37,747 nt of DNA, taken from the NCBI GenBank assembly GCA_003223145.1, contig QHXY01000135.1, positions 4,288 through 42,034 of the forward strand, read 5' to 3'. This stretch comes from Acidobacteriota bacterium. GTDB taxonomy: Bacteria; Acidobacteriota; Polarisedimenticolia; Gp22-AA2. The notes under the pieces are model-generated. The model was not told the origin of the DNA. It made no database searches and was given only the letters and a program-made list of their open reading frames with translations. Of this stretch, positions 22,401 through 30,678 are shown in pieces. Every line of letters begins with the position of its first letter. The stretch's first letter is position 1. A program made the position numbers and the translations under genes.

Positions 22401-23005
22401 GTGGCCTGCCGCGGCACCGCCGGCTGGACACACGAGCGGCGACTGTCCGTCGAAGGATACCGGGTCGTGGCGGGCGTGGACGAAGTGGGTCGGGGCTGCC
22501 TGGCGGGCCCGGTGGTGGCGGGAGCGGTCGTTCTCGACCGGGACCTTCCGGTCCAGGGCGTCCGCGACTCGAAGCTGCTGGCCCCGCCCGACCGCGAGCG
22601 CCTGGCGCGGGAGATCGCGGCGCGGGCGCTGGCATTCGCGCTGGGGGTGGTCGATCCGGACGAGATTGATCGGACCGACATCCTGCGGGCGACGCTTGTG
22701 GCGATGAGGCGCGCCGTGGAGGCGCTCAGGGTGCGGCCCGATTTCGTGCTCGTGGATGCTCTGACCATCCCGGGGATCGCAACCCCGCAGAGGGGCATCG
22801 TGCACGGGGACCGGCTCTCGGCCAGTATCGCGGCGGCTTCGATCGTCGCGAAGTTCTACGGCACAAGGGCTACGGCACCCGCGACCATTTCGACGCGCTG
22901 GCCCGCTATGGCCCCACTCCGCTGCACCGCTCCACTTTCCGCGGCGTGCGGCCCGAGGTCGCTCCCGTGGCGCCGCTCTTCTCGACGCCCGGGCGGGTGC
23001 CTTGA
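22401..23005 (+). pseudogene. rnhB: Ribonuclease HII, broken by an internal deletion plus frameshift near 22860 (true pseudogene or assembly error)
   Basis: [24 protein letters not shown] in the first frame. [26 protein letters not shown] resumes at 22862 in another frame and stops at TGA 23003-05. Confidence 0.88.
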
Positions 23006-26000
23006 TGCCCTTCGACCGCGCCAAGACGCTCGCCAGCGCCGAGAAATTCGTCAGGGCCGGCAAGATCCCCGAGGCCATCGGCGAGTACAAGAAACTCTTC
23101 GAAGACAACAGTCGCGACATGGGCGTGCTCAACAAGCTGGGCGACCTCTGCGTCCGGGTCGGGAAGAACCAGGACGCCATCCGGTTCTTCCTGCGCATCG
23201 CCGAGTTCTACTCCGCGGACGGCTTCTTCCTCAAGGCGATCGCCATGTACAAGAAGGTGAGCAAGCTCGATCCGGCGAACGCCGACTGTCTGCAGAAGCT
23301 GGCCGGTCTCTACCAGCAGCAGGGGCTGACGATCGAGGCCAAGGCCCAGTATCTCGCGGTGGCGGACCGTCACATCAAGGGGGGTCACTTCAAGAAGGCC
23401 ATCGAGGTGTTCGCCAGCATCCTCGAGATCGAGCCGGACAACATGAAGATCCGGCTGACGTACGCGGACATGCTGGTTCGGGCGGGCAGCACGCCGGACG
23501 CCGGCGCGCAGTTCCGCGTGGTCGCCCAGGACCTGGCGAGGAAGGGAATGTTCGACGAGGCGCTCAAGGTCGCGCAGAAAGGGTCGAAGATCGTCCCCGG
23601 CGATCCCGACATGATGAGCCTCGTGCTGGCGCTGACGAAAGAGGCCGAGAAGAGTCCGGGGGAGCTTCTGTCCACGGTCGTCGCCATGGCGAAGGCGAAC
23701 GGCGACAATCCGCGCTCGCTGGCCCTTCTGGGTGAAGCCTACCTCGCTGCCGGCAAGACCTCGGAGGCCGAAAAGGTCTTTCAGAGACTGCGGGGGATCG
23801 AGGACGCGCCACCCGAGGTCGCCTGCGCCCTGGCGCGCTTCTACATCTCGAAGGACGAGGCGGACCCCGCTCTCGAGTGGGTGTCGCGCGCGGCGGAGGG
23901 CTACCTGGGTGCGTCCCGGCCGACGGACGCGGCCGGGATGATGGACGAGTTCCTGCGCGCCTTCCCCAATCATCGCGGCGGCCTGATGAAGCGCGCGGCG
24001 GTCGCCGAGCAGGCGGGTGACAAGAAGGCGCAGTTCGAGGCCTTGCAGGGGCTCGCCGAGACGCTCCTGCACTCCGGCGAGCGCCAGGAGGCAGCCGGTA
24101 TCGTCAAGACGATGCAGGGGCTGGATCCGCAGAACCCGAAGTGTGCCGAGATGCTCGATCGACTCAGTGAGCGCGCGGGTGGCGGCGCGCCCAAGGCGGC
24201 GCCTGCAGCGGCTCCCGGAGCGGGCGGCGGCCCCCGGGCCCAGGCGGCGGCAGCGCGCGTTCCCGACATCCAGGAAGGGGCGCTCGACCTCGAGGAAGAG
24301 CCGGCCGCTGCGGTTCCGATCGATGAGACGGAAGTGGCTTCCGGGGCCGACGCTCTGGGGGACGTCGAGGAAGAGCCGTACGGACCGCAGAGCAAGATCC
24401 AGGACATGCAGGCGGAGCCCGACGAGGAGGGCGACGAGCCCGAAGACGACGACTTCATCACCGAGCACTTCACGGAGGCCGAGGTCTTCGTCAAGTACGG
24501 GCTCCTCGATAAGGCGAAGGAACAGCTCCTGAAGGTCCTCGCCAAGTACCCCAAGCACGTCCCGTCGCACTCCAAGCTGAAGGAGATTTATTACGAGGAA
24601 GGGGACAAGGAGAAGGCGGTCGCCGAGTGCCTGTCCCTGGCGTCGATCATGAAATCGCGCAACCGCGCGGAGGAGGCGCAGGACCTCGTCAACGAGGCGA
24701 TCCGGATCGACCCGAACAATCCGCGCCTGCGGGAGTTCACCGCCGCGCCTGCCGCCCCCGAGCCGGCGAAGGCCGCACCGGTTGCGGCCCCGCCAAAGCC
24801 GGCGGCTCCGGTGAAGCCCCCGAAAGTACCGGCCGCCGCAAAGCCGGCGCCACCGGCGGCAGCACCTCCCCCGGAGCTGGAGATCGAGGAGATCGGCGGC
24901 GGGACCGAGCTGGAGATCGAGCCGACAAGCCAGATCGGCGCTCCCGTCAGGGATGACGCGGTAGAAGTCCCGGGCTCGGACATGGAGCTCGAGCTCGAGA
25001 TGCCCGAAGAACCTGAAGGAAAGAAGCCGGCCGCGCCTCCGCGCGCCGCCACGCCGGCCTCGGCGCGCCCCCAGGCGGCGGTCCGTCCGGCGCCCGAGAA
25101 GATCGAGGAGGAGACCCCGGACGACCTGGCGGGCGGTCTGTCTCTCGACCTGAGCGACGATGAGATCACCATCGAGGTGGAAGACGACGGAGGCGCGACG
25201 CCTCCCGCATCAGCGGGCGCGGACCGCTCCCCGGCGTACGCCGCGGCGGGGGGCGGCGATCCCGATGCCGAGAAGCTGGGAGAGGTCGATTTCTACATCG
25301 ATCAGGGGCTTCTGGAAGAGGCGCGCGCCGTGCTGTTCCAGCTCCAGAAGCAGTATCCGGGAAGCCAGGAAGTGGCCAACCGTTTCGAGCGGGCCAACCG
25401 TCCGGCGGCGGAGATGCCCGCGGCGCGCGCCGCGCCGCCATCCCAGCCGGGCGAGCTCGACCTGGACGTCGAGCGCGCCTTCGGAGCGCAGACGATGGTC
25501 CTCCCGGCGCCCCGTCCCGTGCCCGCGGACATGCCGCGCGCGACCAAGGCGACGCCCGTATTCCGCGTCGAGAAAGCCGAGCCCGCTGCCGAGGGCGACT
25601 TCTTCGACCTGGCGGGCGAACTGGACCGCAGCCTGGCGGAGGCGCACGTGGCGGTCGACACACAGGAGCAGGAAGCGCTCGAGGGACCGGGGCACAGCCT
25701 GGACGAGATATTTCGTGCCTTCAAGAGGGGGGTCGAGCAGCAGGTCGACTCGCAGGACTACGAGACGCACTACAACCTCGGGATCGCTTACAAGGAGATG
25801 GGCCTCGTGGACGAGGCGATCGGGGAATTCCAGTACGCCGCGCGCGACCCGGCCAAGACCGTCGAATGCTGCGGCATCCTGGGACTGTGCTTTCGCGAGA
25901 AAGGCATGCCACAGCTGGCGCTGAAGTGGTACCAGAAGGGTCTGGATATGCCGGCGCTGGGGGAGCACGAGGCGATCGGCCTGCGCTACGACATCGCGGA

Positions 26001-26124
26001 GGTGTTCCGCGAGCAGGGGGATTACAAGAAGGCCATGCAGGTCTACACCGAGGTGTACGGACTGGACTCGACCTACCGCGACGTCACCGCCAAGATCAAG
26101 GAGTTGAAGAAGCTCCTTGGCTGA
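23005..26124 (+). CDS. Large cytoplasmic TPR protein with acidic/Pro-Ala linker (SgmX/FimV-like architecture)
   Basis: N-terminal TPR array; internal EAEVFVKYGLLDKA and EVDFYIDQGLLEEA helical repeats; C-terminal TPRs DYETHYNLGIAYKEMGLVDEAIGEFQ...LRYDIA; TGATG overlap with the rnhB stop. Confidence 0.85.
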   Translation: MPFDRAKTLASAEKFVRAGKIPEAIGEYKKLFEDNSRDMGVLNKLGDLCVRVGKNQDAIRFFLRIAEFYSADGFFLKAIAMYKKVSKLDPANADCLQKLAGLYQQQGLTIEAKAQYLAVADRHIKGGHFKKAIEVFASILEIEPDNMKIRLTYADMLVRAGSTPDAGAQFRVVAQDLARKGMFDEALKVAQKGSKIVPGDPDMMSLVLALTKEAEKSPGELLSTVVAMAKANGDNPRSLALLGEAYLAAGKTSEAEKVFQRLRGIEDAPPEVACALARFYISKDEADPALEWVSRAAEGYLGASRPTDAAGMMDEFLRAFPNHRGGLMKRAAVAEQAGDKKAQFEALQGLAETLLHSGERQEAAGIVKTMQGLDPQNPKCAEMLDRLSERAGGGAPKAAPAAAPGAGGGPRAQAAAARVPDIQEGALDLEEEPAAAVPIDETEVASGADALGDVEEEPYGPQSKIQDMQAEPDEEGDEPEDDDFITEHFTEAEVFVKYGLLDKAKEQLLKVLAKYPKHVPSHSKLKEIYYEEGDKEKAVAECLSLASIMKSRNRAEEAQDLVNEAIRIDPNNPRLREFTAAPAAPEPAKAAPVAAPPKPAAPVKPPKVPAAAKPAPPAAAPPPELEIEEIGGGTELEIEPTSQIGAPVRDDAVEVPGSDMELELEMPEEPEGKKPAAPPRAATPASARPQAAVRPAPEKIEEETPDDLAGGLSLDLSDDEITIEVEDDGGATPPASAGADRSPAYAAAGGGDPDAEKLGEVDFYIDQGLLEEARAVLFQLQKQYPGSQEVANRFERANRPAAEMPAARAAPPSQPGELDLDVERAFGAQTMVLPAPRPVPADMPRATKATPVFRVEKAEPAAEGDFFDLAGELDRSLAEAHVAVDTQEQEALEGPGHSLDEIFRAFKRGVEQQVDSQDYETHYNLGIAYKEMGLVDEAIGEFQYAARDPAKTVECCGILGLCFREKGMPQLALKWYQKGLDMPALGEHEAIGLRYDIAEVFREQGDYKKAMQVYTEVYGLDSTYRDVTAKIKELKKLLG

Positions 26125-26194: not shown

Positions 26195-27508
26195 TTGAAT
26201 CGCAGCGCAGGACGCGCGGCCCGTCCGATCAGTGTGCCGGGGATCGCCACGCGAGCCCTGCGCTCCGGATATTACAGCGACGCGTACTTTCTCAACGCCT
26301 CGCGCATTCTCGCGGCCGCGGCGCGTACCGGAGAACGATTCGTCGGCCGGCCCCCGGCGGCCCATGCGGGCATCCGGCCTGTCGAGTCGTTCGTGCCCGG
26401 CGACGCCGAGGTCGAGATGCAGTTCTTCGCCCGGCGCGCGCCGCGTTTTGTCGCGGCGGGCATCGGACCGGCCCTCGGCATCCTCAGGGATGGCATTCGG
26501 GGAGGGCGGCGCGGCGCAGCACGCCTCCGGGTTCGTGCAGTCACGGAAGGGAGCCTTGCACGCCCGCTGGATCCGGTGCTGGTGGTGCGCGGCAGGTATC
26601 GCGATTTCGCGCACCTCGAAACCCCGGTTCTTGGCGTCCTGACGCGTTGCAGCCGGGTGGCCACGAACGTCTACGAGTCTCTCCTGGCCTCGCGCGGCAA
26701 GCCGATCCTGTTCTTCCCCGCCCGCTTCGATCTGCCGCACTGCCAGCCTCTGGACGGCTATGCGTACCGCGTGGCGCTGGCGACCTACGCGGCCGTCACG
26801 GGGATCCGCGTGCCGGCGCACGTCTCGACGGACGCGCAGGGCGCGCTCTGGGCGGAACGCGGCAGTGGGACCATGCCGCACGCCTTCATCCTGTGCTTCC
26901 TGGGGGATACGGCGGAGGCCGTGCTGGCCTTCTGCCGGCACGCGCCCCCCTCGGTGATGCGTGTCGCCCTCGTCGACACGACCAACGACTGCGTGGGGGA
27001 ATCGGTGCGCACGGCCCGCCGGCTGCTCGAAGAGCATCTCCGCCTGTTGCGCGCCGGTCGGTCCGCGGAGGCGGCGCGCTACGTCCTGCACGCTGTGCGG
27101 GTTGATACCGCGCAGGATCTGCGGGACAAGAGCGTTCCGGCGTCGCCCGACCCGCGTCTGGAGCGTGGCGTCACGCCGGTCCTGGCGAAGCTGGTGCGCG
27201 GCGCGCTGGACCAGGCGTCCCAGGGTATGGGTCTTTCAGGTCGCTGGCGGACGGCCGCCGATCGCTACGTTCGCGGCGTCCGGATCGTGGCGACCGGGGG
27301 TTTCGACCCCGGCAAGATCCGCTTGTTCGAAAAACGGCGGGCCCCGGTGGACGTCTACGGCGTCGGGTCGTTCTTGCTGCGCGGTGCGGCCAACGATTAC
27401 ACCGCGGACGTGGTGCGGGTTCGTGTCGGGGGTCGCTTTGTCACCATGGCGAAGACGGGCCGCCGCCCGCGTCGCAGCCACGAGCTGAGACCGGTACGGC
27501 TTTGCTGA
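26195..27508 (+). CDS. Nicotinate phosphoribosyltransferase-like type II PRTase (start uncertain: 26117/26195/26234)
   Basis: GYYSDAYF, VEMQFF, VATN, GTMPH, ALVD..NDCV, VRVDT, GGFD, VDVYGVGS, DYTAD, AKTGR; GAGGA precedes TTG 26195. Confidence 0.85.
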   Translation: MNRSAGRAARPISVPGIATRALRSGYYSDAYFLNASRILAAAARTGERFVGRPPAAHAGIRPVESFVPGDAEVEMQFFARRAPRFVAAGIGPALGILRDGIRGGRRGAARLRVRAVTEGSLARPLDPVLVVRGRYRDFAHLETPVLGVLTRCSRVATNVYESLLASRGKPILFFPARFDLPHCQPLDGYAYRVALATYAAVTGIRVPAHVSTDAQGALWAERGSGTMPHAFILCFLGDTAEAVLAFCRHAPPSVMRVALVDTTNDCVGESVRTARRLLEEHLRLLRAGRSAEAARYVLHAVRVDTAQDLRDKSVPASPDPRLERGVTPVLAKLVRGALDQASQGMGLSGRWRTAADRYVRGVRIVATGGFDPGKIRLFEKRRAPVDVYGVGSFLLRGAANDYTADVVRVRVGGRFVTMAKTGRRPRRSHELRPVRLC

Positions 27509-27531
27509 AGACGCTGAGAAAGGGACGCGGC

Positions 27532-28210
27532 ATGCAGCGAAGGTCGGGACGATCCCGTGCCACCGGGCGGCTCCTGAACGGCCCGGGCGGAGCGGCCGTC
27601 GTCCTCCGTCCCGCTCGCCCGGTCAGGGGGCTCCGCATCCTCCGCAAGCTGCCGTCTGGCGGGACGGGGTTCCTGACACTGGAACGGTTGCTTGCGAGGA
27701 ATCTGTATCATGACGGCAGGCGGTCACCGATCTACCGGTTCGAGGTTGTTCATCGTCGTGGGGTCGACGCGGTCGCAATCCTGCCTTTCTATTTCGATCC
27801 GCCGAGACGTCTGATGATCATCTGCAAGATCGGGTTCAGGCCCGGACTGTACACCCGCTCAAGACTGCACCCGCCCGTCCGGGATCGGCGCGTCTACAGG
27901 TCGGTGATCGAAGCGGTGGCGGGCAGTCTCGAGCCGGGCGACCGGGGTGAGGCCGGGATCAGCGCGCGGGCTCGGGCGGAGCTTCTCGAGGAAACCGGAT
28001 TGAGGCCTCTGGCCGCCGGAACGCTGCGCCTGGGAAGCGGCTTTTTTCCGTCGCACGGTCAGTCCACCGAAAAGGTCCACTTGCGCGCCTTCAGGGTCGA
28101 CCCTCCTCCTCATGTGTCGCCGTGGTCTCATCGAGGACCCGAAGGTCGAGATCGGTGTGACCCGATTGATGCGGGCCATCGGCCGCCGGCCTCGAATCGG
28201 CAGAACCTGA
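27532..28210 (+). pseudogene. Nudix hydrolase (ADP-ribose pyrophosphatase-like), broken by an internal deletion plus frameshift near 28102
   Basis: DAVAILP, variant Nudix box AGSLEPGD...ELLEETGL, FPSHG.STEKVHL. The typical end MCRRGLIEDPKVEIGVTRL lies in the +1 frame from about 28103, stop 28208-10. Confidence 0.8.
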
Positions 28211-28243
28211 AATTGTGGCCGCCAGCGGACACGAAGTGACCAC

Positions 28244-28352
28244 TTTTGACGCATGCGGCGTCAGGCCACTGCCGTTGCGTCATCATCTTTGACGCACGGT
28301 AAACTTCTGAAAACAAAAGACAACATTCATCCTGCGTCGGGCTGCGTCAAAA
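28244..28352. promoter_or_regulatory. Array of TGCGTCA/TGACGCA half-sites, candidate enhancer (UAS) for a sigma54 activator
   Basis: TGACGCA 28247-53, GGCGTCA 28257-63, TGCGTCA 28276-82, TGACGCA 28290-96, TGCGTCG 28333-39, TGCGTCA 28343-49. Confidence 0.6.
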
Positions 28353-28481
28353 TGCCCTAAGAAAACTGCCGAACAGCCCGCAGAATCTGCTGTTGAGCGC
28401 TGCATCGAAACTCTTTTAACTCGTTTCCTTAAAGCAATTTGGGTACGGAGATACGGTCGCGCGAGTAGTTCGTCAGGATAA

Positions 28482-28497
28482 AGGCACGATGTTTGCA
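28482..28497 (+). promoter_or_regulatory. Sigma54 (-24/-12) promoter
   Basis: AGGCACGATGTTTGCA versus consensus TGGCACG-N4-TTGCW (one mismatch, exact GG-N10-GC spacing); intergenic. Confidence 0.75.
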
Positions 28498-28524
28498 AGA
28501 TACCTCAAATCGTTCATCGTCATA

Positions 28525-28719
28525 AACGGACTCCATGATAGGAAGCGAGATGCTGAAATCCGCAAGTCTCTCCGGCAGCCGGTGTCCCAATCCTGACTTT
28601 CCCTCCATCCCATTTTCCTTCCCCCCCTCGTTCGCAGATGGCAGAGAGATCGGCGACGCCGGCTGTCGGGGACTGGATTTGATCGGAGGGCACATCCTTG
28701 ATTTCGTGACGGAGCCGTT
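28525..28719 (+). ncRNA. Candidate structured RNA / long 5' leader (nested imperfect hairpin)
   Basis: Nested complementary segments: 28525-34/28711-19, 28556-61/28675-80, and an 18-bp stem 28569-86/28655-72 with 3 G-U pairs. Folded by eye only. Confidence 0.55.
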
Positions 28720-28749
28720 GGACCCTCGGGGTCTAGAGAGGAGCTTTCG

Positions 28750-29052
28750 ATGCTGAAGGGCATGGGGACAACCAAGACCGTTTTCGACTTCGACCCATTG
28801 GGTGCGCTCGCCGGTGGTGCAGGCGGGGCGATCCTGTGGGCTCGTCAGGGAAGGATTTACGTCGATCGGGGTGACCTGGTCGGCGCCCTGCAGTCCTACC
28901 AGCGCTCTCTCGAAGCCGACATGGATTGCGTGGAGGCCTGGATCGGTCTTTCGGAGGTGTTCACGAAGATGCAGGACCGCCGGCGCGCGGAGAACTGTCT
29001 GGACGTGGCGCGCCGCATCCGCAGCATTTCCGCCCGCCACGCCACCGCCTGA
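28750..29052 (+). CDS. Small (100 aa) TPR-containing protein
   Basis: AGAGGAG RBS; TPR pattern W..QG..Y...GD..GA...Y..SL..D.....AW..L..VF; high-GC3 codon usage in the 3' part. Confidence 0.75.
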   Translation: MLKGMGTTKTVFDFDPLGALAGGAGGAILWARQGRIYVDRGDLVGALQSYQRSLEADMDCVEAWIGLSEVFTKMQDRRRAENCLDVARRIRSISARHATA

Positions 29053-29072
29053 AGTTCAGACCCCCGCAGTCC

Positions 29073-29101
29073 TTGACACCGTTTTAGGCGTCTGCTAGCA
29101 T
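29073..29101 (+). promoter_or_regulatory. Sigma70-type promoter for the aldehyde dehydrogenase-ald operon
   Basis: TTGACA (29073-78), 17 bp spacer, TGc-TAGCAT (29093-101). Confidence 0.72.
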
Positions 29102-29181
29102 CCCCTTCCCGTCGCGCCCCATCAGATAGGAAGCAAACGACTTTTTCCGCGTCGACCGATCTCCCAGAAACAGGGAGCAGC

Positions 29182-30678
29182 ATGGCCGAGCCGAAAACCT
29201 ACCGGAATTTTATCGATGGCGAATGGATCGAAGCGAGCGCCCGGCAGACGCGCGAGAATCGCAATCCCGCCGACAAGAGCGAGGTCATCGGCACTTTTCA
29301 AAGCTCTGGACAGGCCGACATCGATGCGGCCGTCGAGGCCGCGCGCAAGGCCTGGAGGAGATGGCGCCAGGTTCCGGCTCCCAAGCGGGCCGAGCACCTG
29401 TTCCGCATGGGAGAGATCCTGGTGCGGCGCAAGGAGGAGTACGCCCGGGAGATGACGCGCGAGATGGGAAAGCCGCTGCGCGAGGCGCGCGGCGACGTGC
29501 AGGAGGCGATTGACGTCTGCTATCACATCGCCGGAGAGGGGAGGCGGCTGCATGGCCACACCACCCCTTCGGAGCTGCCGAACAAGTCCTGCTTGTCGAT
29601 GCGCGTGCCGCTGGGCGTCTGCGGCCTGATCACGCCCTGGAATTTTCCGATGGCGATTCCATCCTGGAAGCTGATCCCGGCGCTGGTGTGCGGGAACAGC
29701 GTGATCATCAAGCCGTCGAGCGACGCGCCGCTCTCGGCGTACCATCTCGTCAAGGTCTGCCAGGAAGTGGGCATCCCGCGGGGAGTGGTCAACTACGTGA
29801 CCGGGGACGGGGAGTCGGCCGGGACACCGCTGACACGTCATGCGGGTGTGGCGCTGATCTCCTTCACCGGCTCCTCCGAGACCGGCCGACAGGTCAACCT
29901 CGCCTGCGCCGACACCTACAAGCGCGCCGCGCTCGAAATGGGCGGCAAGAACGCCATGATCGTCATGGACGACGCGCGTCTCGATCTCGCGGTGGAAGGG
30001 GCCCTCTGGGGCGCCTTCGCGACCACGGGCCAGCGCTGTACCGCCACCAGCCGGATCATCGTCCACAAGAAGATTCTCAAGGAGTTCGTGGATCGTTTCG
30101 TCGAGCGGGCCGGCAGCCTGAAGGTGGGCGACGGCCTGGACGAGTCGGTGGACGTCGGCCCCCTGATCAACGAGGCGCAGCTCAAGAAGGTCATGGACTA
30201 CATCCAGATCGGGCGCGACGAGGGTGCCGACCCAGTCCTCGGCGGCGTGCGGCTGACCAAGAATGAGTACGGTCGCGGATTCTTCTTCCCCCCGACCGTC
30301 TTCACGGGCGTCACCCGCGGGATGCGCATCGCCCGCGAGGAGATCTTCGGTCCGGTGGTGTGCGTGCTGGCTGCGGACAGCCTGGAGGATGCGCTGGAGA
30401 TCGCCAATGATTCGCCGTATGGCCTGTCTTCGTCGATCTACACTCAGGACGTGAACAAGGCGTTCGCGGCGATGCGCGACCTCGAGACCGGGATCACCTA
30501 CGTGAACTCATCCACGATCGGCGCCGAGACCCACCTGCCGTTCGGAGGCCTGAAGAAGAGCGGCAATGGCCACCGCGAGGGGGCGGCGCACACCGCGATC
30601 GATATCTTTTCCGAATGGAAGACGGTCTACGTAGATTACTCCGGCAAGCTTCAGAAGGCCCAGATGGACAACAACTGA
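29182..30678 (+). CDS. NAD(P)-dependent aldehyde dehydrogenase family protein
   Basis: ITPWNFP, KPS, FTGS, LEMGGKN, GQRCTA (catalytic Cys), EEIFGPV, PFGG.K.SG. Confidence 0.96.

Follow-up and report, generated by a model that had tools for sequence, protein, structure and literature searches.

What kind of unit occupies the stretch of lowest G+C content in this DNA of an uncultured soil acidobacterium? In the window, which is the whole stretch of 37,747 nt that was analysed, the minimum lies at 28201-28800. Two 300-nt bins there have G+C fractions of 0.507 and 0.560, and all other bins reach at least 0.587, in agreement with the earlier note, which singled out the only long, lower-GC intergenic region here. 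The note described repeated half-sites, a -24/-12 box, a long hairpin and a 100-aa TPR gene, and proposed a self-contained unit controlled by sigma-54. It suggested looking for co-conservation of the GG-N10-GC box, the GCGTCA sites and the fold upstream of homologues, and for rpoN and enhancer-binding protein (bEBP) genes in the genome. The site cluster, the box, the hairpin and the TPR gene keep their positions among relatives in the Acidobacteriota (Ca. Polarisedimenticolia). Together they occupy a fixed chromosomal place, directly upstream of an aldehyde dehydrogenase/alanine dehydrogenase operon, in one order-level clade of Ca. Polarisedimenticolia. With moderate confidence, we read the locus as a sigma-54 unit that needs an upstream-bound activator and whose transcript carries a conserved RNA element and, in the lineage of the window, a coupled small ORF and TPR gene. 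Its features are the following; the distal dyad and the A+T-rich spacer were read from the sequence.

28247-28263, forward strand: distal upstream candidate activator site, a perfect TGACGC-N5-GCGTCA dyad some 236 bp before the -24 GG
28276-28296, forward strand: second dyad, GCGTCA-N7-TGACGC, whose position (-206/-193) recurs in G004, G023, G043 and G016
28307-28324, forward strand: conserved block CTGAAAACAAAAGACAAC between the candidate activator sites; same-genus sequences read CTGGAAACAAAG.AGAAC
28332-28356, forward strand: proximal candidate activator site, whose core GCGTCAAAATGCC at 28344-28356 is the best-conserved upstream element
28405-28440, forward strand: A+T-rich spacer between the candidate activator sites and the promoter, with a CAACAATTTGA-like stretch in some relatives
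28482-28497, forward strand: sigma-54 promoter AGGCACGATGTTTGCA, with the -24 GG at 28483-28484 and the -12 GC at 28495-28496; expected start at about 28506-28510
28540-28545, forward strand: ribosome-binding site AGGAAG of the small ORF; same-genus loci have an AGGAA/GGGAA-type purine run 4-9 nt before the ATG
28550-28756, forward strand: small ORF of 68 aa (MLKSASLSGSRCPNP...ERSFRC), whose stop TGA overlaps the TPR start (ATGCTGA)
28556-28685, forward strand: conserved RNA element of about 130 nt, the span of the covariance model (models R1 and R2; G000:C79:32843-32972)
28571-28584, forward strand: 5' arm of the 14-bp core helix, TCCGGCAGCCGGTG, from the covariation alignment
28657-28670, forward strand: 3' arm of the core helix, CGCCGGCTGTCGGG, from the covariation alignment
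28750-29052, forward strand: mini-TPR gene of 100 aa, Pfam TPR_2 at 28.7 bits (cut-off 27)
29073-29101, forward strand: sigma-70-type promoter of the downstream aldehyde dehydrogenase operon, outside the unit and marking its 3' limit

The promoter is considered first. AGGCACGATGTTTGCA is the sole match in the window to TGGCAC-N5-TTGCW at up to one mismatch, and it has one mismatch. The box alone is not significant: at least one match is found in 45 of 100 shuffles, and GGCAC-N5-TTGC occurs 24 times in the genome. The -24/-12 box claimed by the earlier note is accepted because of its conservation in 25 of 26 orthologous loci, not because of the match in a single genome. In 23 of these loci the distance from a GG-N10-GC box to the RNA element downstream of it is 69-97 nt; in two it is shorter, and one locus has no box. 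Background alone would place 0.016 boxes in each interval searched. One sigma-54 box was found in each of the 17 upstream fragments. The box is found at none of the eight loci where the element precedes a PDZ-protein gene (below). The genome encodes rpoN (one Sigma54_DBD match, 216.5 bits). It also matches the Sigma54_activat domain 29 times; 21 of these matches are full length, so that at least 21 complete ATPase domains of enhancer-binding proteins are available. With its GG and GC doublets 10 nt apart, and with rpoN and activators in the genome, the site can be classed as a putative sigma-54 (RpoN)-dependent promoter. In five genomes (G005, G012, G017, G025 and G026), no Sigma54_activat gene was found on the contig of the element, which fits the proposal that the activator is encoded elsewhere.

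Exact matches to TGACGCA/TGCGTCA number nine in the window, and four of these fall within 28247-28349. The total is not unusual (5.5 expected; 12 of 100 shuffles reach nine). The clustering is what bears out the repeated half-sites, although the count for the window lies within the shuffle range: the 3.86-Mb genome averages 0.89 TGACGC/GCGTCA hexamers per kb, and only here does it have five or more of them within 130 bp. TGACGC-N5-GCGTCA at 28247-28263 is the sole exact match with a 5-nt spacer in the genome, and the position of this distal dyad (-236/-225) is kept in G007 and G009 and partly in others. Of 19 loci, 15 have a GCGTCAAAAYGCC-like sequence at -134 to -141, counted from the -24 GG; three sister-family genomes and G017 have a GCGCCAAAATG variant at -118 to -136. 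The upstream GCG(T/C)CAAAA site and the promoter box keep their sequence and spacing across genera. Activator sites are expected roughly 80-250 bp from the promoter, and the position-fixed dyads, the conserved GCGTCAAAAYGCC core and the genome-unique cluster make this region a candidate for such sites. The A+T-rich spacer may be a bending site. A genome-wide scan for TGACGC-N4-7-GCGTCA at up to one mismatch gave 77 scattered matches with no second promoter-linked site, and a regulon defined by the dyad was therefore set aside.

The RNA element consists of a long stem closing a loop with a C-rich 5' part and a purine-rich 3' part with UCGGCGA. Anti-Shine-Dalgarno-like C runs are kept in the loop in all contexts. 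The long hairpin of the earlier note is real: its arms lie at 28569-28586 and 28655-28672 in the window, and they covary. Folding energy does not set the 282-nt leader apart from shuffled sequences (-103.2 kcal/mol versus -99.4 +/- 5.9; z = -0.64), since 48 of 200 shuffles fold equally well or better. Among 17 sequences, 96.6% of the cells pair and both-side changes number 13 versus 5.3 in shuffles (0/500 reach this), and among 28 sequences 95.9% pair with 25 such cells versus 8.4 (0/500), shuffle statistics that are inflated because the sequences are related, on alignments that are partly fitted to the model structure (A5). With 28 sequences, compensatory double changes are seen at 7 of the 14 pairs of the core helix. 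An example is G012, in which CCAGTGGCCGG pairs with CCGGCCACTGG. When the partner columns are slid, pairing falls to 22-55%. The core cells comprise 350 Watson-Crick, 26 G-U and 16 other combinations, and because of the 26 G-U cells the pairing works on the forward strand only. A co-varying outer stem extends the 14-bp core. Its flanks pair with -8.0 kcal/mol within a sequence versus -3.9 across sequences, a value reached by none of 10000 permutations, and the test on 17 sequences had the same outcome. All 30 single-sequence folds contain the long-range stem, with 15-28 pairs. The consensus fold supports no inner helices in the loop. The transcript thus carries an RNA element of about 130 nt with a long, covarying and strand-specific stem.

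Nothing in the window reached a gathering threshold in searches with the 4227 models of Rfam 15. For 28100-29200 the limit was relaxed to E = 10, and for the element in eight related loci to E = 1, again with no match. With covariation above the controls and several genetic contexts, the element is a candidate new RNA family. The covariance model finds it in 28 of 119 genomes of the class, namely that of the window and 27 others. Of these others, 24 belong to the family (28 genomes searched) and three to the sister family (five searched); the remaining 85 genomes do not contain it. It is present in 26 of 29 family genomes, at two to three copies per genome. At least 120 stretches matched in a metagenome pattern scan; among the 80 listed, the model accepts one (L127) as a true element, and the others are chance matches of the G+C-rich pattern.

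Three contexts are seen. The element lies upstream of the TPR gene, directly before the dehydrogenase promoter in loci that lack a TPR gene, or in the leader of a gene for a PDZ protein. Neither the TPR gene nor a conserved ORF accompanies the promoter and element in three sister-family genomes (G025, G026 and G028) or in G017, G019, G020 and G044; in G017 and G044 terminator-like hairpins follow the element. The second copy in the genome of the window (G000:C151:26994-27113) is the 5' leader of a PDZ-protein gene that starts with a signal-peptide-like hydrophobic stretch. The promoter in front of this gene is unrelated and of a non-sigma-54 type. Two close relatives carry a 1-nt indel in the PDZ context that shifts the frame. 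Copies within the same genome have diverged from each other. Across genera they are syntenic, always in the same orientation and just downstream of a promoter. The RNA hairpin is the most widely kept part of the module. Its conserved core is the RNA element with the sigma-54 promoter and not the TPR gene, since the sister family and several members of the family lack the latter. The regions upstream of the homologues conserve the GG-N10-GC box together with the GCGTCA sites and the fold.

In the lineage of the window, the element falls within the first 45 codons of the 68-aa ORF. In all 13 loci compared, its frame stays open over at least 68 codons, which neither of the other two frames does. 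A 12-nt indel keeps the frame, GC3 exceeds GC1 and GC2 in nine of nine ORFs, and differences in codons 42-68 amount to 427/378/671 by codon position. The dN/dS ratio is 0.25 in frame versus 1.75 and 1.42 out of frame. Gene callers have called the ORF elsewhere (5 clusters). These features indicate that 28550-28756 is protein-coding and under purifying selection in 10 genomes of the clade of the window. The earlier note had not seen this ORF. The "~240-nt structured leader/sRNA" that it described holds as a conserved structured RNA; what stands here, however, is a predicted 5'UTR of 42 nt followed by the coding ORF of 68 codons, which is probably coupled to the TPR gene by translation. Translation of the element does not appear to be a general feature, because the peptide is conserved in only about 10 genomes, the frame across the 3' arm differs in other genera (G016, L127, G010, G012, G013 and G041) and the indel in the PDZ context shifts the frame. 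No Pfam or NCBIfam family matched the small protein, and the ESM Atlas gave chance-level neighbours only (0.81). Among 1.84 billion representative sequences, 11 proteins matched it at E up to 0.001; some six of them are genuine small relatives, and P0011-P0013 are long and repetitive. The overlap with the TPR gene has no slippery heptamer at GCTTTCGATGCTGA, and for this reason programmed frameshifting was set aside.

The second small protein is the 100-aa TPR protein announced by the earlier note, and its TPR_2 score above the Pfam cut-off supports that call. It also matches TPR_19 at 25.5 bits (cut-off 25). The structure model (pLDDT 82.6) has a disordered N-terminus (residues 1-23), four helices that make two TPR motifs, and a long last helix (77-99). 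It superposes on consensus-TPR structures with an rmsd of 0.8-1.2 A over 64 residues. By score and predicted repeat fold, the protein belongs to the TPR repeat proteins (Pfam clan TPR). The gene is present in 19 of 28 family genomes and in that of the window. A TPR frame extending further upstream in the window was rejected because of a stop 16 codons upstream. The small-ORF product and the TPR protein most likely act together, since other genera (G010, G012, G013, G024 and G041) have the upstream frame and the TPR domain joined in one fusion. Complex prediction for the pair scored 0.02, with the fold of the partner uncertain, a result that counts neither for nor against a complex.

Expression was followed in four soil metatranscriptome runs of one study, as low-depth assembled contigs from RNA libraries, which can contain DNA. 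Contigs cover 28540-28723 and 28764-29043, and the four runs have nothing on 27900-28539 or 29088-29500. One contig (28572-28832) bridges the small ORF and the TPR gene. The contigs begin at 28540-28545, about 33 nt downstream of the predicted start near 28508. At 28666 all four runs read C where the window has T, so that a G-U pair of the core helix becomes G-C. The sigma-70-type promoter that the earlier note placed at 29073-29101 was found, and it is kept before the aldehyde dehydrogenase gene in relatives: a TTGAC-N17-19-T(G)CTAGCAT/TGATAGGGT site precedes this gene in 8 of 8 TPR-less loci. The claim of a self-contained unit stands in so far as the next operon has its own sigma-70 promoter and the RNA contigs lie on the unit and not on its neighbours. 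It is weakened by the lack of any terminator-like site in 27800-29400 of the window, which makes read-through from the TPR gene into the dehydrogenase operon possible.

How might such a unit work? With the -24 GG as reference, an unlinked enhancer-binding protein would bind the dyads at about -137, -200 and -230 and switch on transcription from about 28508. The stem begins 6-10 nt after the AUG of the small ORF and for that reason may limit or time ribosome loading and mRNA stability. Ribosomes finishing the small ORF would re-initiate on the TPR gene at AUGCUGA. Since copies of the element follow two stress-type promoters that differ from each other, they are probably the target of a shared post-transcriptional factor. 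Such a factor could be RNase III, a protein that binds the RNA, or a partner that pairs with the C-rich, anti-Shine-Dalgarno-like loop. Genes for RNase III and Hfq are present, and CsrA was not found in this 88%-complete genome.

The loci in which the promoter and element stand without the TPR gene or a conserved ORF invite another explanation, namely a stand-alone, trans-acting sigma-54-dependent sRNA whose C-rich loop (CCCUCC/CCCACCU) pairs with the Shine-Dalgarno regions of targets, the ORFs in the lineage of the window being secondary or untranslated. The terminator-like hairpins of two of these genomes, the C runs kept in every context and the presence of Hfq point the same way. We nevertheless consider this unlikely for the window. 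Purifying selection on the ORF extends beyond the element in its clade; the ribosome-binding site, the ATG and the stop/start overlap are all kept there; no terminator directly follows the element; and, because a contig bridges into the TPR gene, the RNA here is at least also an mRNA. In another reading, the sigma-54 promoter would be a second, far-upstream promoter of the aldehyde dehydrogenase/alanine dehydrogenase operon, with the element as its cis leader and the two small genes as passengers. The aldehyde dehydrogenase gene directly follows the unit in 24 of 28 loci in two families (it was not found in the available stretches of the other four), the window has no terminator-like site between the TPR stop and this gene, and the element is clearly a 5' leader in the PDZ context. 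The operon, however, has its own conserved sigma-70-type promoter in the eight TPR-less loci and in the window, terminator-like hairpins lie behind the element in G017 and G044, and the RNA contigs end at 29043, which in four low-depth runs is a weak point. We therefore regard this reading, too, as improbable.

Two further explanations concern the hairpin. Conserved codons of the small ORF (GSRC, GCRG) contain both arms within the genus, and most arm positions are invariant there, as would be expected of an ordinary two-gene protein operon in which the hairpin is a by-product of the codons. Yet the arms stay complementary in other frames and in untranslated leaders, double compensatory changes are found as in G012, the outer stem varies in sequence and remains complementary, and the element persists where the genes are gone. 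A codon by-product is thus very unlikely. The two to three copies per genome, with arms that are G+C-rich and partly self-palindromic, could also suggest an inverted repeat that acts as DNA, either as a protein-binding palindrome or as the remnant of a small mobile element. Strand asymmetry disfavours this: the 26 G-U cells become A-C mismatches on the opposite strand, where the model also scores far lower (for example, 55.5 versus 37.4 and 67.5 versus 36.4 bits). Neither the divergence of the copies within one genome nor their synteny across genera, in constant orientation just downstream of a promoter, fits such a repeat, and we find it extremely improbable. The sigma-54 unit with a conserved RNA element and coupled small genes is the reading that we retain.

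Its history may hold more. Tentatively, an ancestral sigma-54-transcribed non-coding RNA could have been overprinted by reading frames differently in each lineage, so that the transcript today would be a true dual-function RNA; we see this as possible but doubtful. The locus would then be non-coding in the sister family, would carry the 68-aa ORF and TPR gene in the genus of the window and an ORF running over the 3' arm in another frame in G016 and L127, and would be a TPR fusion in the five genomes with a fused frame. If so, it documents how protein-coding sequence arose on a structured regulatory RNA, and the copy in the PDZ leader marks a small post-transcriptional regulon in which the sigma-54 signal is tied to an envelope-type (ECF-like) response. 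Depending on the lineage, the same conserved nucleotides belong to an untranslated leader or form coding sequence, the latter in more than one frame, and this makes the locus useful for studying the origin of small proteins on regulatory RNAs. The place of the unit before the aldehyde dehydrogenase/alanine dehydrogenase operon suggests a link to amino-acid or nitrogen metabolism. The element adds an RNA motif outside Rfam that is supported by covariation in three genetic contexts. Regulation in the Acidobacteriota is almost unexplored, and the locus offers a concrete, testable sigma-54 regulatory unit with defined candidate activator sites. The titles and abstracts found under the name Ca. Polarisedimenticolia report no cultured member, and those on Polarisedimenticolia, Acidobacteria sigma-54 small RNAs and sigma54-dependent sRNA/small-protein systems contain nothing on the present unit.

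Several known systems resemble parts of this unit. Two canonical TPR motifs with a long final helix behind them (77-99 in the TPR protein) are shared by this protein, the designed CTPR2/CTPR3 and the TPR domains of Hop and CHIP, which are peptide-binding; the profile of the protein matches CTPR chains at E = 1e-15 to 1e-9 for designs of 91-125 aa. In contrast to these, the present protein has only 100 aa, its 23-aa N-terminus is disordered and it occurs in one bacterial family only. The class II type III secretion chaperones LcrH/SycD are likewise small all-TPR proteins, and they hold a partly unfolded partner. The protein is not a member of this group (NCBIfam 23.4 bits versus a cut-off of 104.8), and no secretion genes lie nearby. 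At the RNA level, RNase III cleaves the long 5' stem-loops of the E. coli rnc and pnp leaders and thereby sets mRNA stability or translation. The present stem (15-28 pairs) is similarly close to the 5' end and the start codon in a genome that encodes RNase III, whereas it contains bulges and G-U pairs and closes a large loop of about 70-90 nt with conserved sequence; cleavage here is hypothetical.

Sigma-54-dependent regulatory RNAs include Qrr (with LuxO), CrcZ (CbrB), GlmY (GlrR) and Pxr of Myxococcus. Like the present unit, they combine a -24/-12 promoter with upstream sites at fixed positions, and their conserved product is a short structured transcript. Unlike them, the element belongs to another phylum, has no Rfam match, contains translated ORFs in the lineage of the window and is also an mRNA leader behind a non-sigma-54 promoter. 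When it was scored against the Rfam models of Qrr, CrcZ, GlmY/GlmZ, Pxr and the Acido motifs, no family came near its gathering threshold. Dual-function RNAs, such as SgrS/SgrT, RNAIII/delta-haemolysin and SR1/SR1P, both regulate and encode a small protein. Here the structure lies inside the coding region and not beside it, and a second gene is probably coupled to the first by translation. The likeness, drawn from sequence only, is that of a structure conserved at the RNA level overlapping an ORF under coding constraint, and as would be expected of a dual-function RNA, the element persists in genomes without the ORFs.

The region between 28240 and 28749 is the sole long gap between large ORFs of its vicinity. 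It also holds the lowest G+C of the window, with two 300-nt bins at 0.507 and 0.560 and all other bins at 0.587 or more; the unusual low-GC intergenic region of the earlier note is thereby borne out. The assembly has 474 contigs, 88% completeness and 68% G+C. The surroundings include the housekeeping genes ribD, ribBA, ffh, rpsP, rimM, trmD and rplS, together with genes for a 1040-aa TPR protein, a nicotinate phosphoribosyltransferase-like protein, alanine dehydrogenase and a penicillin-binding protein. No mobile-element genes were seen among the annotated genes around the unit. A 245-aa ORF (27502-28239) lies 3' of the nicotinate phosphoribosyltransferase-like gene and stops shortly before the first dyad. 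Neither Pfam nor NCBIfam has a match for it, but its C-terminal part is kept upstream of the unit in 18 of 28 loci compared. The 1040-aa protein (23002-26124) carries TPR repeats at each end, separated by a long low-complexity middle rich in Pro, Ala and Glu. In genera without the two intervening genes, the 3' end of its gene is directly upstream of the sigma-54 unit. The features are as follows.

28482-28497, + strand: sigma-54 box AGGCACGATGTTTGCA, a -24/-12 match with one mismatch
28550-28756, + strand: small ORF of 68 codons, with AGGAAG upstream and a stop that overlaps the TPR start at ATGCTGA
28569-28586 with 28655-28672, + strand: 18-nt inverted repeat
28750-29052, + strand: mini-TPR gene, 100 aa, matching TPR models
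29073-29101, + strand: sigma-70-type site preceding an aldehyde dehydrogenase gene

The 282-nt leader as a whole folds no better than shuffles (z = -0.64). The evidence for the hairpin comes from comparison between genomes. The arms stay complementary in distant genera, although the ORFs there read them in other frames. In the 14-bp core, 96.6% of cells pair on 17 sequences and 95.9% on 28 model-aligned sequences, where double changes occur at 7 of the 14 pairs; CCAGTGGCCGG with CCGGCCACTGG in G012, a related genome, is an example of compensation. Doubly changed cells number 13 versus 5.3 in shuffles for the 17 sequences and 25 versus 8.4 for the 28 (0/500 shuffles reach the observed value in each case), statistics that are inflated because the sequences are related and the alignment A5 was fitted to the model. 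Less exposed are the slid controls, in which pairing on the 28 sequences drops to 22-55% when the partners are moved by 1-3 columns, and the permutation of the outer flanks. The flanks vary in sequence between genera and keep complementarity within each sequence, with energies of -8.0 kcal/mol within a sequence versus -3.9 kcal/mol across sequences (0/10000 permutations reach the observed value). In G010, flank pairing adds 11 pairs beyond the core, and single-sequence folds give 15-28 long-range pairs in each of 30 copies. The unpublished genome G023 forms one row in alignments A1, A2, A3 and A5 and is counted among the genomes; no claim is made on it alone.

The core cells comprise 350 Watson-Crick, 26 G-U and 16 other combinations, and covariance-model scores on the reverse strand are much lower. 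Because of these G-U cells and low reverse-strand scores, the pairing is meaningful only in the sense of the transcript. In the loop of 70-90 nt, the 5' part is rich in C (CCCUCC, CCCACCU) and the 3' part in purines, with UCGGCGA adjoining the 3' arm; the consensus fold contained no conserved inner helix there. Judged from this comparative pattern, we regard the hairpin as an RNA element in its own right.

The same segment also carries an ORF. By DNA search, 28540-28758 is the best-conserved intergenic part, with seven genomes of the genus at 73-79% identity. All eight genus members share the two ends of the small ORF, as do G023, G043 and G014, although a contig end truncates the G014 copy. 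In 13/13 loci the frame of the ORF stays open for 68-109 codons; the TPR frame there meets a stop 16-114 codons upstream, and the third frame closes after 3-84 codons. A 12-nt indel preserves the frame. GC3 exceeds GC1 and GC2 in 9/9 sequences, more weakly than in neighbouring genes, and the differences at the three codon positions number 423/275/488 for codons 7-41 and 427/378/671 for codons 42-68. The last 19 codons lie beyond the RNA element and have an in-frame dN/dS of 0.25, versus 1.75 and 1.42 in the other frames. Gene callers predict the protein in a few assemblies (5 clusters). Because of these signs together, we take the small ORF to encode a real small protein confined to the lineage of the window. 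No Pfam or NCBIfam model matches the family, which has only about six representatives among 1.84 billion proteins. The product contains Pro and Cys, with C39 and C68 invariant, and is probably disordered. The structured leader or sRNA of ~240 nt proposed in the earlier note is therefore upheld in its hairpin, which is conserved as RNA, but the leader here also holds the ORF 28550-28756.

The covariance model R1 finds the element in 26/29 family genomes. A second model, R2, finds it in 28/119 genomes of the class: 24/28 in the family, 3/5 in the sister family and 0/85 elsewhere. Three contexts are seen, and G041 also holds a third context (c) at locus L077.

Context (a), the type of the window: sigma-54 promoter, element, small ORF, TPR gene, dehydrogenase gene
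Context (a-minus): sigma-54 promoter, element, the dehydrogenase's own sigma-70-type promoter, without the TPR gene
Context (b): element in the 5' leader of a PDZ-protein gene, whose protein starts with a signal-peptide-like hydrophobic stretch
G000:C151:26994-27113: second copy of the element in the window's own genome (G000), ahead of a PDZ gene starting near 27202

The reading frames differ between genera. G010, G012, G013, G024 and G041 have one continuous ORF that starts ahead of the 5' arm and extends into the TPR domain, with the 3' arm read in another frame. The 63-64-aa ORF of G016 and of the metagenome contig L127 passes over the 3' arm in this alternative frame as well, but ends at the same ATGCTGA overlap. 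Context (a-minus) is found in G019, G020, G044, one G017 copy and all three sister-family genomes with a match; in G017 and G044 the element is followed by terminator-like hairpins. G015 likewise lacks the TPR gene but keeps the element; no sigma-54 box was found there. The context (b) gene matches PDZ_2 (E = 1.9e-12), and its promoter has the form GGAC(A/T)TTTACA-N11-CGTA(C/A)AC, which resembles ECF-sigma promoters. The G000:C151 arrangement of promoter, element and PDZ gene recurs in 8 other genomes. In this context the element is non-coding, because a 1-nt indel between two close relatives shifts the frame across it. In 23/31 copies the core is preceded at 6-21 nt by an ATG; in three (b)/(c) copies this ATG falls inside the outer stem.

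Several observations accompany these loci. In the region G000:C151:26890-27113, TTTAC(A/G) motifs recur and a GGCGACATTTACA-N11-CGTACAC site is present. At L079:1566-1725 (G022:C174), ~650 nt downstream of a PDZ-linked copy, lies a cobalamin riboswitch (72.3 bits) that is truncated by the locus end and has no relation to the finding. In G021 the RNA model found no element; the main TPR locus (L016) has a sigma-54 box, a GCGTCAAAACGTC site and a leader of only ~70 nt, and a second, shorter mini-TPR-like match lies at L058 (G021:C61:4978-5106).

Each promoter signal is weak by itself. A one-mismatch sigma-54-like box occurs in 45/100 shuffles of the window, and GGCAC-N5-TTGC occurs 24 times in G000. 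Exact TGACGCA/TGCGTCA heptamers number 4 within 28247-28349 and 9 in the whole window, a total within chance (12/100 shuffles reach 9). What stands out in G000 is hexamer clustering: at least five TGACGC/GCGTCA hexamers within 130 bp occur at one place in the 3.86-Mb genome, the unit. Across genomes, exactly one GGCA(C/T)-N5-(T/C)TGC box is present per upstream fragment, always upstream of the gene (17/17). A GG-N10-GC box, with a background expectation of 0.016 per window, lies 69-97 nt before the element in 23/26 orthologous loci and closer in 2 more; it was not found in G015 and occurs in 0/8 PDZ-context loci. In 15/19 loci from more than a dozen genera, GCGTCAAAAYGCC stands 134-141 bp before the -24 GG; this spacing is kept although the intervening DNA has diverged. 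The sister family has a GCGCCAAAATG variant at -118 to -136. Part of the genus and a few other genera also keep the distal dyads, TGACGC-N5-GCGTCA at -236 and GCGTCA-N7-TGACGC at -206. This layout is the pattern expected for sigma-54 activator sites, to which an activator would bind. RpoN is encoded in G000 (profile search), along with 29 activator ATPase domain matches, 21 of them full length; no activator gene was present on the unit's contig in five genomes checked. The checks proposed in the earlier note, for sigma-54 and activator genes and for co-conservation of box, upstream sites and fold upstream of homologues, thus support it.

The 100-aa TPR gene and the sigma-70-type site of the next operon were also found as the note had described them. 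The mini-TPR protein has clear relatives in 17/40 nearest genomes; by profile, at E up to 1e-8, it is found in 19/28 family genomes and 3/90 elsewhere in the class. In its predicted structure (pLDDT 82.6) a disordered N-terminus precedes four helices, and its best structural and profile matches are designed consensus TPR proteins. The model points to a generic two-repeat peptide-binding scaffold. Membership in LcrH/SycD was rejected, the weak match being far below the family's cut-off. A conserved stretch, perhaps another regulatory element, lies in the dehydrogenase leader (29102-29181), 3' of the sigma-70-type promoter. Its sequence is CCATCAGATAGGAAGCAAACGACTT in the window; relatives have ATCAGAT(A/T)GGCAGCAAA(A/G)GACTT, and the sister family has CAATTGCCATAAAACAAACGAGATA.

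Contigs from four soil metatranscriptome runs, all of one study, cover 28540-28723 and 28764-29043, and one bridges 28572-28832. Compared over 27900-29500, no RNA contigs fell on 27900-28539 or 29088-29500. These contigs weakly suggest that a single RNA, reaching from a point downstream of the box to the TPR stop, is made from the unit at a level above its neighbours; the suggestion is weak because the runs were selected by words of the 28240-29060 sequence and transcript ends and levels cannot be read from contigs. All four runs have C at 28666, which gives a G-C pair in the stem. One 100-nt contig of run X4 matches 28596-28648 twice with 17 other letters between; this double match in the C-rich loop is probably an assembly artefact or from a relative.

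We propose that an unlinked activator would bind the dyads and drive sigma-54 transcription from about 28508. The mRNA would begin with a ribosome-binding site and AUG, followed 6-10 nt on by the base of the long stem, which would hinder ribosome loading and which translation would have to open. The stem would be long enough as an RNase III substrate; RNase III and Hfq are encoded in G000. On reaching the end of the small ORF at AUGCUGA, ribosomes would pass to the TPR gene. The role of the element is probably post-transcriptional and shared between contexts, because it is kept behind two signal-dependent promoters and where genes have been lost. It could act in cis, by affecting translation or stability, or in trans via the C-rich loop.

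Sigma-54-dependent RNAs, dual-function RNAs and mini-TPR proteins are known kinds. The RNA motif has no Rfam match, and among the literature titles and abstract beginnings searched none described the unit. What is new here is the RNA motif, its combination with ORFs overprinted in several frames, and the phylum.
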